Shown: positions 5,499 through 27,038 of the stretch, piece after piece | Numbering within the stretch: position 1 is the stretch's first letter | Layout: each line of letters begins with the position of its first letter | DNA from: Halomicrobium mukohataei DSM 12286 | GTDB lineage: Archaea; Halobacteriota; Halobacteria; Halobacteriales; Haloarculaceae | Assembly (NCBI RefSeq): GCF_000023965.1 | Contig: NC_013202.1 | Span: 3,060,001 to 3,092,000 of the forward strand | Direction: 5' to 3' | Length of the DNA stretch: 32,000 nt | Notes under the pieces: generated by a model | Told to the model about the DNA's origin: nothing | Databases searched by the model: none | The model's input: the letters and a program-made list of their open reading frames with translations, nothing else | Position numbers and translations under genes: made by a program

Positions 5499-7085
5499 AT
5501 GTCTCTGCCAGACGTGGCCGAACTCGATCTCGCCACCAAAGTCGGACAGCTGTTCGTCGTCGGCTTCGAGGGACCGGAGCCGACGGAGGACCTCCGCGAA
5601 CTCCTCACCGACTATCGCTGTGGCAACGTCATCTACTTCAGCCGGAACATCGACTCGCCCGAGCAGGTCGCCGAGCTCAGTCGCGAGCTACAGACCATCG
5701 CCACCGAAGCGGGACCCGAGATCCCGCTGTTCGTGACGGCCGACCAGGAGGGCGGCGTCGTCTCACGGACCGACTGGGGGACCGAACCCCCGAGTCAGAT
5801 GAGCATCGGTGCGGGCCGGGACGCCGACCTCGCCCGTTCGGTGGGTGGCGCTGTCGGGGCGGAACTCGCGTCGATCGGCGTCAACTTCGATCTGACGCCG
5901 GTGCTGGACGTGAACAACAACCCGGACAACCCCGTCATCGGCGTCCGGTCGTTCGGCGAGGAGCCCGAACTCGTCGGCGATCTCGGCGCGGCGATGGCCG
6001 ACGGCATGCAGTCCGAGGGCGTGCTGGCCTGTGGGAAGCACTTCCCGGGCCACGGCGACACCAGCGCCGACTCGCACCACTCGCTACCCGTCGTCGACCA
6101 CGACCGCGAGCGTCTCGACGCCGTCGAACTCGCCCCCTTCCGCCGGGCGATCGACGCCGGGATCGACGCGATCATGACGACACACGTCTCGTTCCCGACG
6201 ATCACCGGCGACGACGAACTCCCGGCGACCGTCTCCCGAGACGTACAGACCGGACTCCTCCGCGAGCAGTTAGGGTTCGATGGCCTGGTCGTCACCGACG
6301 GAATGGAGATGAACGCCATCGCCGACGAGATGGGGACGCCGGAAGGGTGTGTCCAGGCCGTCGAAGCGGGCTGTGATCTCCTCCTGGTCTGTCACACCCC
6401 CGCGGTCCAGAAAGACTCGGTCGAGGCGGTCATCGACGCCGTCGAGTCCGGCCGCATCGACGAGTCGCGGATCGACGACGCTGTCGAGCGCGTCCTCGAG
6501 TACAAGGAGCGACGCGGCGTCGGCCAGCAGACGCCCTCGCTCGACCGCTGGGAGGCGACCAGCGATCGCTCCCGCGAGGTCGGTCGTGAGGTCGCCGCGG
6601 CCGGCATCACGGTCGCTCGGGATCGAAACGAGACGATTCCCTTCGACACCGGACGACCGCTTCACCTCGTCGGCTTCCCCGGCGGACGCGCTTCGCCGGC
6701 AGAGGACGACCGCTACGAGCCGACGCTGGTCGCCGACGCACTCGAAGCCGGCGGCTTCGACGTGGAACTGCACGAGGTGGAGACCGCCGACGCCCTGCCG
6801 TCGTTCGAGGGCGACGAACAGGTCGTGCTGGCGACCTACAACGCCGCTGGCGACGACGAACAGGTGCGAGCGGTCGAGCGACTGGACGAGGCCGTCGACG
6901 CCTTCGCCGCGCTGGTGGTGCGCAACCCCTACGACCTCGCTCGCTTCCCCGACGTGTCGACGGCGGTGTCGACCTACGACTACACGCCCGCGACGCTGTC
7001 GGTGACCGGCGAGATCCTGGCCGGCCGGCGTCGGGCCAGCGGTCGGCTGCCGGTGACGATCGCGGGCTTCGAGGCCGAGAACTGA
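5499..7085 (+). CDS. glycoside hydrolase family 3 (NagZ-like beta-N-acetylhexosaminidase)
   Basis: KHFPGHGDTSADSH motif, LVVTDGMEM nucleophile region and DQEGG substrate-binding motif. No signal peptide is visible. Confidence 0.8.
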   Translation: MSLPDVAELDLATKVGQLFVVGFEGPEPTEDLRELLTDYRCGNVIYFSRNIDSPEQVAELSRELQTIATEAGPEIPLFVTADQEGGVVSRTDWGTEPPSQMSIGAGRDADLARSVGGAVGAELASIGVNFDLTPVLDVNNNPDNPVIGVRSFGEEPELVGDLGAAMADGMQSEGVLACGKHFPGHGDTSADSHHSLPVVDHDRERLDAVELAPFRRAIDAGIDAIMTTHVSFPTITGDDELPATVSRDVQTGLLREQLGFDGLVVTDGMEMNAIADEMGTPEGCVQAVEAGCDLLLVCHTPAVQKDSVEAVIDAVESGRIDESRIDDAVERVLEYKERRGVGQQTPSLDRWEATSDRSREVGREVAAAGITVARDRNETIPFDTGRPLHLVGFPGGRASPAEDDRYEPTLVADALEAGGFDVELHEVETADALPSFEGDEQVVLATYNAAGDDEQVRAVERLDEAVDAFAALVVRNPYDLARFPDVSTAVSTYDYTPATLSVTGEILAGRRRASGRLPVTIAGFEAEN

Positions 7086-7165
7086 TACGGACGGTTGTAG
7101 GAATGTACCGGTGAGCGTCGCCACGGGGGAGACGCTCACCGGTAAGCAACTACAACTTTCCGTAT
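7085..7165 (+). terminator. long imperfect hairpin directly after the GH3 stop codon
   Basis: Nested arms pair as follows: ATACGGA 7085-7091 with TCCGTAT 7159-7165, GTTGTAG 7094-7100 with CTACAAC 7150-7156, and ACCGGTGAGCGTC 7107-7119 with GACGCTCACCGGT 7131-7143 (13 bp, perfect). A T-rich run (ttcttt) follows downstream. Confidence 0.35.
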
Positions 7166-7381
7166 GAGACGGACTGTCGCCGGCCTTCTTTGATCGGTTT
7201 CTCCCCCCGGAACCAGCAGAGACAGAGCGACGGGACTCCGTGTCGAGCGACGGGCGGTCGTGGCTGCGCGGATTCGGCCGATAGAGTCGGTTTGTATTTT
7301 TATTCTGATATCAAAATTTTACACGCCTCAGTGCCACTCGTGCGGACTTCACCGTCTCGCCTGCCTGTTTTGGGGACGAAC

Positions 7382-15177: not shown

Positions 15178-15343
15178 TTTCTCCAAAACCGCCCGACACG
15201 GCCGTGATAACTGGGACCAAACCACACAGTATCGGGGCGTTACGCGCTATAGTAACAATTGAAACGATTTACACACCGATCGCACTGCTGTCGTGCGATC
15301 GGGTGAACATTGAATTTCAATGGCTACTATAGTTTGCCGGATC

Positions 15344-15705
15344 GTGTTCAGATAAGCCACTGCATCTTCTGAGTTGTAGACACCGAAAGCCCTCGTCGCG
15401 CTCCGGCATTCTGTGACGGATATCTTCACTTCGTTCAGATAGTGCCGCCACAGAATGCCGGACCACGACTCGCCCTTTCATCCGCCAGGAGAGCACGCTC
15501 TCCTGAGCCTGTGCTCACCCTGTTCGCACAGACGCCAGGATTCGGCCGTTGAACCGTCTAGACCCTGGTGGATGAAAGGGCGAGCGCAGTTGCGGGAACC
15601 CCGACGATGCAAGCACCGACTGGAGCGCAGCGAGTCGCGGGACCGCAACTGCGCGAGGGCTTTCGGTGTCTGCACCACTACGCTGACAGTCGCTTATCTG
15701 AACAC
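15344..15705. repeat. nested-palindrome structured element, copy 1 (362 bp)
   Basis: GTGTTCAGATAAG 15344-15356 pairs with CTTATCTGAACAC 15693-15705. AGACACCGAAAGCCCTCG 15378-15395 pairs with 15654-15671 (18 bp, perfect). Three internal hairpins have stems at 15403-15419/15445-15461, 15469-15489/15564-15584 and 15585-15595/15643-15653. Confidence 0.8.
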
Positions 15706-15776
15706 TACCGTTTGCCGGTCGGTACTGCGACAGAGAGAACAGTCGACTTTTGGTCGGCGACGACCTTCGCCGGACA

Positions 15777-18991: not shown

Positions 18992-19315
18992 TCAGTGGTC
19001 GTCTTCGCGCCACTTGTGGTCGCACTCGGTACAGGTGAAAAAGCGCGTCTCGGACTCGTCGGCGGCCCGGATCTGCTTCATCTCCCAGAAGGCCCGGTCG
19101 TTGCCACACTCGGGACAGTGTGCGTCCGTCGTCGGCCCCATGTCTTCGGCCTCGACCTCGGAAGTGTCGACGATCTCGCTCTCTTCCTGGCCCTGCGTGG
19201 TCACCATCGAACTTTCGTCCGCCGCGTCGCGGGCCCGCTCGGCACCGCAGCTGCCACAGACCCAGACGCCGTCTTCGGCTTTCATCATCGAACCGCAGTC
19301 GTCACAGAACTCCAT
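18992..19315 (-). CDS. tfs: transcription factor S (TFIIS/RpoM-like)
   Basis: N-terminal zinc ribbon MEFCDDCGSMM...VCGSCG and C-terminal zinc ribbon CPECGNDRAFWEMKQIRAADESETRFFTCTECDHKW with the acidic hairpin. The ATG at 19313-19315 was preferred over the track start. Confidence 0.9.
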   Translation of the reverse strand: MEFCDDCGSMMKAEDGVWVCGSCGAERARDAADESSMVTTQGQEESEIVDTSEVEAEDMGPTTDAHCPECGNDRAFWEMKQIRAADESETRFFTCTECDHKWREDDH

Positions 19316-19370
19316 GGTTGACTGGGATTGCAATCGAAGTGGTTTAAGCTCGGGGGTTCATCGCTCGGCG

Positions 19371-19682
19371 GTGTTCAGATAAGCAGCAGCACTGACTGAC
19401 ATATAGACACCGAAAGCCCTCGTGCAGTTGCGGTCCCGCGGCTCGCTGCGCGCGCTCCGCGTGCTTGCTTCGCCGGGGTTCCCGCAACTGCACTCGCCCT
19501 TTCATCCGCCAGGGTTCAGACGGTGAACCAGCCGATTCCTGGTGGATGAAAGGGCGAGGTGCGGTCGACGGTTCTGCGGCGGCACTATCGAACGCAGTGA
19601 AGATATCCGCCACAGAACCGCCGAGCGTGCCGAGGGCTTTCGGTGCCTCGACGATGCTACTCTCGATCTCTTATCTGAACAC
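19371..19682. repeat. nested-palindrome structured element, copy 2 (312 bp, inverted relative to copy 1)
   Basis: It has the same terminal 13-mers (19371-19383 and 19670-19682). The 18-mer stem is 19405-19422 with 19631-19648 (17 of 18 paired). Hairpins lie at 19493-19513/19538-19558 and 19569-19582/19607-19620. The internal order and loop sequences equal the reverse complement of copy 1. Confidence 0.8.
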
Positions 19683-19692
19683 TACCCATCGC

Positions 19693-20709
19693 TCAGCGTT
19701 CCAGCCAGCTCGAACAGGCGTCGAGGTCGTCCATGGTTCGCTCGTGGAGCTGGCAGTACGGCCTCGACTCGCCGTCTTCCATCACGTACTCGAAGTGTCG
19801 ACAGTTCCCACAGTACGCTTCGAGGGAGTCTTCGTTCTCGTCACCGTCGCTCGTCGAATCGAGGACGTCGTTGCTGAAGGCTGCGCCACCGGTCACCGTT
19901 CCGTCGCCTTCGATCACTTCGCCGCCGTCGGCGCTGGGTTCAGTCTGTAGTCCTCTGGAGTAGCCCGTGGCGGTGTCCGCGATGGGATCGAAGGACTCCG
20001 TCTGGGTGGCATCGGCCGACCGTCGATCGGCGGCCGGCGACCCGCCGTCGTCGGCCGCGTCGCTGTCGTCGCGTGTTGCGCCCGTGACGGTCGCGCCGTC
20101 GTGACCGGTCGACGCGGTCTCGCGGTTCGTCTGGGTCTCGACCTCGCCGTCGAGGTCCGTCCCGAAGAGGCCGACACCGCCAAAGCGGCCGAGCGAGCGG
20201 GCCTCTTCGACGAGCTGGATCGTCCCCTGGCGGGTGATCTCCATGCGGGCCGTCCCGCCGGGATCGTTGCGGGTCTTGAACGTCGCCAGTGCGACGAACA
20301 GACACCAGAAGATCGTGACGACGCCGAAGAAGTAGACGGCCGTCGTCGCCAGCGTCAGCAGCGGCGCGGCGGTGACCCAGTCGTAGGGATAGACGTGCTG
20401 GAACATGGCGACACCGATCGCCGTGATTCCCGTCCCGACGATTGCAGCCCCACGGACCGACCGCGACGCCGGGAGGACGGCGAAGACGCCGAGCAACACG
20501 GCCGGTAAGCCGAGTCCCGCGAGGACCCCCGCAAGCTCTCGGGCAGGATACCGCCCCAGCGACTGGACACCCACGTTCGTCGTCGCCAGCGCGATGGCAC
20601 CCACGACCATCGACCCACCGACGAGAAAGAGCGCGCTGCCGAGGAGCTGTTGTCGCCGGCTGGCCACCCGGCCGACGTTGCCCTCGTACACGTCTGTGAG
20701 ACTCGTCAT
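19693..20709 (-). CDS. membrane protein with acidic linker and C-terminal Cys-rich (zinc-ribbon-like) domain
   Basis: About 4 N-terminal TM helices, then a long D/E/T/G-rich low-complexity stretch, then YCGNCRHFEYVMEDGESRPYCQLHERTMDDLDACSSW at the C-terminus. Confidence 0.6.
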   Translation of the reverse strand: MTSLTDVYEGNVGRVASRRQQLLGSALFLVGGSMVVGAIALATTNVGVQSLGRYPARELAGVLAGLGLPAVLLGVFAVLPASRSVRGAAIVGTGITAIGVAMFQHVYPYDWVTAAPLLTLATTAVYFFGVVTIFWCLFVALATFKTRNDPGGTARMEITRQGTIQLVEEARSLGRFGGVGLFGTDLDGEVETQTNRETASTGHDGATVTGATRDDSDAADDGGSPAADRRSADATQTESFDPIADTATGYSRGLQTEPSADGGEVIEGDGTVTGGAAFSNDVLDSTSDGDENEDSLEAYCGNCRHFEYVMEDGESRPYCQLHERTMDDLDACSSWLER

Positions 20710-24376: not shown

Positions 24377-24627
24377 CGCCGCTCGACGACCCGGTCGATC
24401 GTCAGCCGGTCGTAGCCCAGCCCCTCGTGGACCGCGAGCTCCAAGGCGTTGACGAGATAGTGGGCGACGACGACCACGAGCAGGCTGTCGGTGAGGACGA
24501 ACCCGGCCGCCAGCGCCAGACCGAGCCCGCCGGTGACGAGCATCCCGACTCGCCCCTGCGCGCCGTGAGCGGCACCGAAGACGACCGACGAGGCTGCGTG
24601 CAGCCACGGCGAGAGAGAGAAGCCAGC
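24373..24627 (-). pseudogene. orphan 3' fragment of a CPBP/abi gene (duplicate of 26226-26480)
   Basis: Minus-strand translation is ...AGFSLSPWLHAASSVVFGAAHGAQGRVGMLVTGGLGLALAAGFVLTDSLLVVVVAHYLVNALELAVHEGLGYDRLTIDRVVERR*. Nucleotides 24395-24592 match 26241-26438 with 5 mismatches in 198 nt by hand alignment. There is no N-terminal part and no start codon. Confidence 0.75.
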
Positions 24628-26225: not shown

Positions 26226-27038
26226 TTAGTCGATGAGCGTCTCGATCGTCAGCCGGTCGTAGCCCAGCCCCTCGTGGACCGCGAGCTCCAGGGCGTTGAC
26301 GAGGTAGTGGGCGACGACGACCACGAGCAGGCTGTCGGTGAGGACGAACCCGGCCGCCAGCGCCAGACCGAGCCCGCCGGTGACGAGCATGCCGACGCGC
26401 CCCTGCGCGCCGTGGGCGGCACCGAAGACGACCGACGAGACGACCGCGAGCAGCCACGGCGAGACGGAGAATCCGGCCGCCATCGCGCCGATGGCAGCGC
26501 CACGGAAGACGACCTCCTCGACGACGGCGACGGTCGGCAGCGCGACGCCGAGCAACAGCACCCACCCACCCAGTGAGTCGGGGGCGAGCAGTTCGCGGAC
26601 GGCCTCGTCGTAGCCCGCACCGGTGGCGTCGGCGACTGCACCCGCGGCTTCGTTGGCCAGCCAGAGGGCGACGCCGAAGCCGATCCCGACGGCGACGCCG
26701 GGGAGCCCACGGGCGAGCGCGGTCTCGGGGATCCCGAGCGCCCACGGCGGGATCGAGAAGTACACCGCGGCCCCGACGACGACCGCGCCGAACAGCCCCT
26801 GGGTCACGACGACGTTGGCGAGCAAGGCACCGGGCGACAGCCGCGCCCGCGGGTCCGCTACCGGCCGCTCGAAGCGCGGCACGACCGGGTCGGTCGGTCG
26901 CGGATCGCGTGGCGAGGGCTCCCTGAACCGGACTGGGTCGTCGTCGCCGCTCAGGGCAGACTGGGACGCTCTCGCGAGTGCGAGAAGCAAGAACAGAGAG
27001 AGGGCGAGCAGGCCGGCGAAGGCGGCCCACCGCGCCAC
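26226..27038 (-). CDS. abi: CPBP family intramembrane protease (Abi), second gene of the lonB operon
   Basis: EEVVFRGAAIG and FGAAHG motifs in a multi-TM protein. The GTG start is only 4 nt after the lonB stop. A lonB-abi arrangement is established for Haloferax volcanii. Confidence 0.8.
   Translation of the reverse strand: MARWAAFAGLLALSLFLLLALARASQSALSGDDDPVRFREPSPRDPRPTDPVVPRFERPVADPRARLSPGALLANVVVTQGLFGAVVVGAAVYFSIPPWALGIPETALARGLPGVAVGIGFGVALWLANEAAGAVADATGAGYDEAVRELLAPDSLGGWVLLLGVALPTVAVVEEVVFRGAAIGAMAAGFSVSPWLLAVVSSVVFGAAHGAQGRVGMLVTGGLGLALAAGFVLTDSLLVVVVAHYLVNALELAVHEGLGYDRLTIETLID

Follow-up and report, generated by a model that had tools for sequence, protein, structure and literature searches.

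An IS6-family miniature element with an inverting three-hairpin core upstream of tfs in Halomicrobium mukohataei

[quoted passage not shown] ISH29 measures 697 bp and carries 16/17-nt repeats (PMC7986276, PMC6807381), and Halomicrobium mukohataei carries the IS6 members ISHmu2 and ISHmu9 (PMC6807381). Inverted repeats are also subject to template switching between their arms, which homogenises the arms and inverts the spacer (PMC8604942, PMC8794818) and which can make and maintain perfect hairpins without selection (PMC8794818). Here we describe two related elements, copy 1 and copy 2, in a 32,000-nt stretch of H. mukohataei DSM 12286 (NC_013202.1, positions 3,060,001 to 3,092,000; hereafter the window, in which all positions are counted). 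Copy 2 is an IS6-family MITE of the ISH29 group, common in Halomicrobium genomes, and it contains a three-hairpin core that has repeatedly inverted between its ends.

Ends, target duplications and IS6 affiliation

Copy 2 is 320 nt long and ends 4 nt outside its two 13-mers, GTGTTCAGATAAG at 19371-19383 and the complement CTTATCTGAACAC at 19670-19682, which a first-pass annotation of this DNA had correctly reported as the same in both copies. The terminal inverted repeats measure 17 nt and consist of a variable 4-nt tip and GTGTTCAGATAAG, and a perfect 8-bp target duplication flanks them. The parts of the element are as follows:

19359-19366, unstranded: left target-site duplication CATCGCTC; the 8-bp rule (at most one mismatch) holds in 21/32 family copies
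19367-19686, minus strand: MITE copy 2, 320 nt, with the core domain H1 to H3 on the minus strand
19367-19383, plus strand: 17-nt terminal inverted repeat, tip GGCG and core GTGTTCAGATAAG, the core being that of the ISH29 ends
19384-19407, plus strand: arm 'b' spacer, 24 nt, CAGCAGCACTGACTGACATATAGA; length constant throughout the family, sequence specific to the sub-lineage
19408-19422, plus strand: inner inverted repeat, 15 bp, CACCGAAAGCCCTCG, left edge of the invertible core
19423-19630, minus strand: three-hairpin core, 208 nt, flipped relative to loci L007 and L027, whose arms are identical
19423-19492, 19493-19558 and 19559-19630: H3, H2 and H1, the order of the core on the plus strand
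19631-19645, plus strand: inner inverted repeat, 15 bp, CGAGGGCTTTCGGTG, right edge of the invertible core
19646-19669, plus strand: arm 'a' spacer, 24 nt, whose reverse complement AGATCGAGAGTAGCATCGTCGAGG resembles the ISH29 sequence inside the left inverted repeat (IRL)
19670-19686, plus strand: 17-nt terminal inverted repeat, core CTTATCTGAACAC and tip TACC, identical to the right inverted repeat (IRR) of ISH29
19687-19694, unstranded: right target-site duplication CATCGCTC, overlapping the stop codon of a cdpA-like gene by 2 bases

The flanking duplication had been read in the first-pass annotation as 12 nt long. The duplication itself stands, but its length is 8 bp in both window copies, and the 12-nt repeats arise from the 8-bp duplication together with a chance resemblance of the left tip to the downstream flank. 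The tetranucleotide TACC, taken at that stage for a separator between terminus and repeat, is instead the right-hand tip of the 17-nt repeat; it is the reverse complement of the tip GGTA and lies inside the element. The right-hand repeat does overlap the stop codon of the 19693-20709 gene, sharing 2 bases with it. The whole window, copy 2 included, is identical in two further Halomicrobium records (CP045142.1 and RZNE01000001.1).

The same anatomy holds for the second element of the window:

15340-15709, plus strand: MITE copy 1, 370 nt, with tips GATC and TACC and both arms of type b

Copy 1 is flanked by a perfect duplication of GTTTGCCG (15332-15339 and 15710-15717). The same site is unoccupied in Halomicrobium katesii, where it reads CTATA-GTTTGCCG-GTCGG with a single 8-mer and lacks exactly 15340-15717; its right flank after GTTTGCCG is GTCGGTACTG. 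This empty site proves the insertion, the 8-bp duplication and the exact ends of copy 1. An empty-site comparison, which the first-pass annotation had proposed for the region upstream of tfs, fixed the duplication of copy 1 at 8 bp, and the view of the element as a mobile repeat with a target-site duplication is borne out by the empty site and the 8-bp duplications. No empty site was found for copy 2, the corresponding H. katesii position being held by another family member. The central loop of copy 2 is, as previously stated, about 50 nt shorter than that of copy 1, which has 50 extra nt in its H2 loop (15491-15540). This insert is bounded by an 8-nt direct repeat, CGCCAGGA (15483-15490 and 15533-15540), is common to L023, L037 and L076, and could be due to insertion with duplication or to slippage.

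A transposase-length open reading frame (ORF) is impossible in elements of 320 and 370 nt, and a tblastn search with an IS6 transposase revealed no homology in the window. We therefore turn to elements with the same ends. When metagenomes were scanned with GGTAGTGTTCAGATAAG, more than 120 loci matched, most of them in hypersaline samples, and the commonest match was an element of about 697 bp with the same 17-nt ends, 8-bp duplications and one ORF of 211-221 aa. The ORF scored 201 bits against the IS6 transposase model NF033587 of NCBIfam (cutoff 125) and matched Pfam DDE_Tnp_IS240, with 94% identity to the ISH29 transposase and 79% to the ISH15 transposase. On pNRC200, ISH29 terminates in GGCAGTGTTCAGATAAG and GGTAGTGTTCAGATAAG and is flanked by the duplication GATAGGCC. 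Copy 2 agrees with the ISH29 IRR at 17/17 positions of its right end, and the 13-nt core is identical at both ends. The tips of the parent IS are unequal (GGCA or GGCG at one end, GGTA at the other), and the unequal tips of the MITE mirror them. The ends shared with ISH29 and the same 8-bp duplication identify the feature as an IS6-family MITE.

Three other affiliations were rejected. Membership of ISH6, which has GGT ends and an 8-bp duplication, fails since the transposase scores 25 bits on the ISH6 model against 201 on IS6. An IS200/IS605-type element with a TACC target is contradicted by the terminal repeats, the duplication and the empty site. The IS200/IS605-derived PATE class (palindrome-associated elements) has subterminal hairpins and inserts beside a fixed tetranucleotide but has no terminal inverted repeats or duplication, whereas the element described here has 17-nt repeats and an 8-bp duplication.

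The extent of the family was assessed by scanning one genome per species with the 18-mer of the element. H. katesii DSM 19301 had matches at about 35 loci, corresponding to about 30 copies of the element, and one Halobacteriales metagenome-assembled genome had them at about 22; the other matches were scattered in unrelated bacteria in about the number expected by chance, as estimated by hand. We extracted 32 bounded copies, of which 21 full copies were used for the core alignment and the configuration count. The 8-bp duplication was perfect in 17/32 bounded copies and had one mismatch in 4/32. Left tips followed the pattern GG-T/C-N (GGTA, GGCG, GGTC, GGTG), with an occasional GATC. Each arm is laid out as tip, 13-mer, a spacer of constant 24-nt length and then CACCGAAAGCCCTCG; the arm 'a' spacer starts with AGATCGAGAG... 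or AGATCAGTGC... and is similar to ISH29 DNA immediately internal to the left end, while the arm 'b' spacer follows the pattern CNRCTG...AGA. Family members span roughly 130-530 nt, including classes of 217-229 nt and 320-343 nt. No full-length IS was present among the 8-kb genome loci examined, and one remnant was seen, a degenerate ISH29-like sequence in H. katesii (L068, 7000-7147) with a 35-aa transposase fragment of 51% identity beside a TACC-tipped terminal repeat.

The element had no match in a phage database, and a plasmid BLAST search gave partial matches to the H3 module and one truncated Halorhabdus relative, nothing more. This relative, on pHTIA of Halorhabdus tiamatea (L001, 1442-1658), is 217 nt long, has the same terminal repeats, is without H1 and half of H2, and overlaps a gene annotated as an HNH endonuclease at the gene's 3' end; the 217-229-nt class to which it belongs is common in metagenomes. 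H3-like modules of other genera lie on a Natrarchaeobaculum plasmid (L002, 1470-1590) and on Natrinema and Natronosalvus plasmids, in the form GGGAACCCCGACGA.GCAAGCAC...GCGCAGCGAGTCGCGGGAC between GAAAGGGGC and GGGGCTTTC, and ISH29-type ends are apparently absent from them. The terminal repeat searched as literal text gave no match in the literature.

Core orientation across the family

The interior of copy 2 aligns to that of copy 1 only as the reverse complement, in agreement with the inversion noted in the first-pass annotation. Orientation was called with loop-specific probes, summed BLAST scores being unreliable for a near-palindromic element, and copies were oriented by their arms and then compared pairwise. 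The results showed that the arms of copy 2 and of L027 from H. katesii are identical on both sides (41/41 and 41/41) and that the 208-nt cores of the two copies agree at 206/208 positions as reverse complements, against 135/222 in the forward direction. The same pattern was obtained for L063 compared with L049 and L022, and for L039 and L044 compared with L031 and L075, so that flipped cores with otherwise identical arms occur in three sub-lineages. The 21 full copies comprised 12 of configuration ab, six of ba and three of bb, and the flip breakpoints lay inside the perfect 15-bp inverted repeat CACCGAAAGCCCTCG. These results demonstrate that at least three inversions of the core relative to the ends have taken place in the family. 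One flip was accompanied by only two substitutions, indicating that flips are not rare compared to point mutations.

Which tip goes with which arm also varies by sub-lineage, arm a occurring with GGTA in one and with GGCG in others. This reshuffling suggests that inversion may also occur between the 13-nt terminal cores. The placement of TACC on the same side of both window copies, despite their opposite interiors, had been described as beyond a simple transposition model; it is accounted for by the unequal tips of the parent IS and by inversion, relative to the ends, of segments between nested repeats.

The two orientations could also have come about if the core bounded by CACCGAAAGCCCTCG were an independent palindromic mobile element that inserted either way into an older, arms-only MITE. 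The core does have its own perfect 15-bp inverted ends, an H3-like module does occur in a different context in plasmids of other genera, and insertions of another small palindromic element into such MITEs are seen at L041 and L060. However, the junctions and the 24-nt spacing are identical across all arms and sub-lineages, and no duplication flanks the core. Moreover, flipped and unflipped pairs match at 41/41 in their arms and at 99% in their cores, which would require recent events at the same two junctions, as inversion gives. We consider an independent core very improbable. Still less credence is due to a phase-variable switch flipped by a dedicated site-specific invertase. Inverted repeats do bound the invertible segment and both orientations are common, but the element is too small for a recombinase gene, the copies are dispersed at more than 30 loci, and the window contains no transposase-like sequence by the IS6 transposase search, no search having been aimed at invertase genes. 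In addition, nested repeats at other levels (tips versus arms) appear reshuffled as well, which points to a general repeat-driven process.

Conserved pairing and what may maintain it

Both stems reported for copy 2 in the first-pass annotation were recovered: the 18-mer stem (19405-19422 and 19632-19649), in which AGACACCGAAAGCCCTCG pairs with CGAGGGCTTTCGGTGCCT with one mismatch, and the 21-bp central hairpin (19493-19513 and 19538-19558), with one G.T pair. As single strands, both window copies fold into an outer stem around the hairpins H1, H2 and H3, with energies far below those of shuffled sequences (z = -10.5 and -13.2). The hairpin at 19569-19582/19607-19620 had been said to differ from copy 1 in three basal pairs on both arms at once; the change with pairing kept was confirmed, but four pairs are involved, in a hairpin that extends over about 19566-19625.

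We aligned the 21 cores in core orientation, derived a structure with RNAalifold and compared it with controls in which columns were shuffled (500 times) or pairing partners were slid. RNAalifold recovered the outer stem and all three hairpins. Paired cells amounted to 98.3% in the alignment and 94.4% in the column shuffles. Pairs with two-sided changes numbered 14, a value reached by 0/500 shuffles (7.7 +/- 1.3 on average), and sliding the partners by 1-3 columns left 0-4 such pairs. The preservation of pairing through compensatory changes, first noticed between two copies, therefore survives in 21 copies with controls. At its base H1 occurs in four fully complementary versions, and no broken intermediates were observed:

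H1 base, version 1: GGCGGTTC / GAACCGCC
H1 base, version 2: CGGGGTTC / GAACCCCG
H1 base, version 3: CGGCATTC / GAATGCCG
H1 base, version 4: AACCAGATC / GATCTGGTT

Within sub-lineages, departures from the majority base were significantly rarer in paired columns (0.66% of cells) than in unpaired columns (2.1%; p = 2e-5). A count of singletons over the whole alignment, which is confounded by two divergent single-copy lineages, revealed no difference between stems and loops. The earlier statement that stems do not tolerate indels holds for the most part, except in three copies whose H3 stem contains an insert of 51 nt. Inserts that form hairpins, each about 50 nt long, stand at identical positions across sub-lineages, in alignment columns 293-343 (L023, L039, L044) and 364-413 (L023, L084), and a further one occupies columns 451-503 of L059. 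Their sharing points to copies that are mosaic or have undergone gene conversion, or else to additional very small mobile inserts.

The first-pass annotation had argued from the compensatory pattern for selection on structure in RNA or single-stranded DNA. The conserved pairing stands, but the conclusion does not follow from it: covariation alone is no proof of such selection, since template switching (PMC8604942, PMC8794818) yields both arm homogenisation and spacer inversion, and both signatures are present here. That the core functions as a structured RNA, whether as a separate small RNA or within the 5' untranslated region of neighbouring genes such as tfs, with the host selecting for folding, seems to us decidedly unlikely. 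The significant covariation, the greater conservation of stems than of loops and the conserved loop sequences are compatible with it, as is the position of both window copies 50-60 nt upstream of start codons. G.U-compatible cells number about 41 on the H1-to-H3 strand and 21 on the opposite strand, although one inherited column dominates this figure. On the other hand, Rfam 15 gave no match at the gathering threshold and only chance-level matches at E<=1, a tRNA scan found nothing, and the core occurs in both orientations relative to the ends and the neighbouring genes. More than 30 copies lie at unrelated loci and their presence varies between close strains, which a selfish element fits better. 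The TATA-like box of tfs is situated at about -27 to -32 from the ATG, on the downstream side of the element; a transcript starting there would exclude the element, and two-sided changes are also made by template switching without selection (PMC8794818).

A purely neutral origin would make the stems complementary through DNA copying, by quasi-palindrome template switching or gene conversion, with the hairpins as a by-product free of selection. This account predicts spacer inversion (PMC8604942), which was observed three or more times. It also suits the H1 variants, which are blocks of transversion pair swaps without intermediates, and the inserts of about 50 nt at identical positions across sub-lineages, which show frequent exchange between copies. 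However, a T.G/C.A mismatch persists in 17/21 copies, no single hairpin loop is inverted, and the loops and the hairpin order are conserved. Many otherwise different MITEs with ISH29-type ends (roughly 130-345 nt) also share, about 24 nt inward of the terminal repeat, the motif GAAAGCCC(TCG), which is absent from the parent IS. This distribution suggests that the motif may have a selected function in non-autonomous elements. Neutral copying as the whole explanation appears possible but rather unlikely.

We favour, as the probable reading, an IS6-family MITE that is mobilised in trans, whose core flips and of which those copies propagate that keep their hairpins. Transposases of the ISH29, ISH15 or ISHmu type would act in trans on the 17-nt repeats GG-Y-N-GTGTTCAGATAAG, as their shared termini suggest, and would make the 8-bp duplications; copy 2 would have landed in this way between the cdpA-like stop codon and the tfs promoter. 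From the outside in, the element is nested as 4-nt tips, the 13-nt repeat core, 24-nt arms, the 15-18-bp inner repeat and the three-hairpin core, with arms of two kinds, 'a' like the ISH29 IRL and 'b' like the ISH29 IRR. DNA between paired inverted repeats can invert, and copy 2 represents one such core flip. To the demonstrated identity, ends, duplication, mobility, flips and pairing conservation of the element, this reading adds two steps. Recombination directed by the inverted repeats, or template switching during replication, may have produced the flips and most of the two-sided stem changes. Copies that keep their hairpins would then propagate better, and the constraint would act on the element's own DNA or its single-stranded form and not on a host RNA gene.

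Several observations weigh against mobilisation in trans combined with flipping and propagation of hairpin-keeping copies. An IS6 transposase with these ends was not shown in the H. mukohataei genome itself, and the same-genus evidence consists of the H. katesii remnant L068 and of ISHmu2 and ISHmu9 from the literature (PMC6807381). The H1, H2 and H3 loops are well conserved in the 21 copies and are never flipped individually there; a purely mutational template-switch model does not predict this, a hint that the core as a whole may have a role specific to sequence or polarity. The T.G pair that persists at one H1 position in 17/21 copies, on one strand, counts against efficient arm homogenisation, which should have erased it. 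No flip was seen at one fixed locus, so inversion in place and inversion during transposition are not distinguished. Finally, the cdpA-tfs site of H. katesii holds a different sub-lineage with the same tips, which insertion plus inversion does not explain.

A stronger claim would be that the core and its boundary repeat GAAAGCCCTCG form an orientation-independent functional module, acquired by haloarchaeal IS6-type MITEs and kept under selection. We hold this to be unlikely. If it were true, the module might, for example, adopt a single-strand or cruciform shape at which forks stall or junction-processing enzymes are recruited, and a 300-nt element could in this way complete and resolve IS6-style replicative transposition. 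The core would then flip at a rate comparable to that of point mutation and would be an invertible, structure-dependent part of the element and not inert filler.

Genomic setting and comparison with known systems

The genes on either side of copy 2 are:

18992-19315, minus strand: tfs (transcription factor S), Pfam Zn_ribbon_TFIIS, downstream of copy 2
19693-20709, minus strand: cdpA-like gene, 338 aa, Pfam CdpA_N and CdpA_C, with its stop codon abutting copy 2

A TATA-like sequence, TTAAAC, lies on the minus strand at 19342-19347, about 27-32 nt upstream of the tfs ATG and between copy 2 and tfs. The core promoter of tfs is thus intact, since this box separates the gene from the element, which stops 19 nt before the box on the upstream side. 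The first-pass annotation had placed the element in the tfs promoter region, and it was right as to the upstream position but not as to any replacement of the core promoter. Copy 1 precedes a PUA-domain gene by about 60 nt.

In H. katesii the two halves of the cdpA-tfs site lie about 140 kb apart, each abutting a family member of another sub-lineage. The flanks read cdpA-GAGCGATG-MITE-GTCGGCAG ... GTCGGCAG-74-nt deletion derivative-GAGCGATG-tfs. The two loci, L060 (518-793) and L214 (about 2880-2955), are directly oriented on KB905378.1 (about 1.8725 and 2.0124 Mb), their elements belong to a sub-lineage other than that of copy 2 but have the same tips, and their flanks are reciprocal, X-MITE-Y ... 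Y-miniMITE-X, with X = GAGCGATG and Y = GTCGGCAG. This arrangement looks like an IS6-type cointegrate or the insertion of a large segment. A second pair in the same species, L039 (7360-7732) and L044 (5414-5786), consists of near-identical MITEs that are inverted, about 194 kb apart and swapped in their flanks (ACTCATAC...GTGGAGCC and GTGGAGCC...ACTCATAC), which is the trace that a chromosomal inversion between copies, or intramolecular replicative transposition, leaves behind.

Two other repeats were observed in the window. Another palindromic element, about 85 nt long and found in multiple copies, (TC)ATACGGACGGTTGTAGG...hairpin...CCTACAACTTTCCGTAT(GA), is present at window positions 7083-7167, at L041 1150-1231 and at L060 521-605, with at least 12 full copies in the H. 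katesii loci examined; it is inserted into the H2 loop of the MITE at L041 and into the terminal repeat of that at L060. A 210-nt direct repeat (24383-24592 and 26230-26439; 95% identity, 1847 nt apart, with a weaker 62-nt extension) is probably a pair of paralogous genes.

As a class, an IS6-family MITE is routine, of use mainly in the annotation of Halomicrobium genomes and in accounting for assembly breaks and rearrangements; the H. katesii flank patterns, at about 140 kb and 194 kb, resemble IS6-type cointegrate or inversion products of a transposase-less element. The only unusual feature is the repeatedly inverting, covarying three-hairpin core. It provides evidence from several lineages that the interior of a MITE flips between nested inverted repeats while the ends stay, and the compensatory evolution of three hairpins in the same element makes it a compact natural test case for structure selection versus template-switch mutation.

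Compared to the archaeal IS6/IS26 clade of ISH29, ISH15, ISHmu2 and ISHmu9, the element shares the 17-nt repeat (GGTAGTGTTCAGATAAG at the ISH29 right end) and the 8-bp duplication (PMC6807381), as well as the unequal tips (GGCA/GGCG versus GGTA) and an arm 'a' like the ISH29 left-end interior. It differs in having no transposase gene, an interior unrelated to the IS, and the GAAAGCCCTCG repeat, absent from the IS, that bounds its three-hairpin palindromic core. MITEHarch3 and MITEBth2 (227 and 336 bp), one of them haloarchaeal, likewise have IS6-type ends and no ORF, are short (PMC7986276, PMC6807381) and are similar in size to family members here, a comparison made by description and not by sequence; the papers cited here make no mention of core inversion or covariation. 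The palindromic domain in two orientations inside fixed arms, with arm homogenisation and inversion together, resembles spacer inversion by template switching at inverted repeats (PMC8604942). The element is thus of a known kind and is a new or at least undescribed member of it, MITEHarch3 having been compared by description only.

Correia/NEMIS, ERIC, RUP and BOX sequences are also short, multi-copy intergenic palindromes with terminal repeats and long hairpins, but they differ in transposase families and hosts, and the MITE here has a three-way junction within its outer stem and a core in both orientations. The terminal palindromes of parvoviruses occur in two orientations, flip and flop, as the MITE core does. 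In contrast to them, the MITE gives no evidence of hairpin-primed replication; it is a chromosomal derivative of a DDE transposon, and its inversion breakpoints fall within 15-bp repeats separated by about 208 bp.

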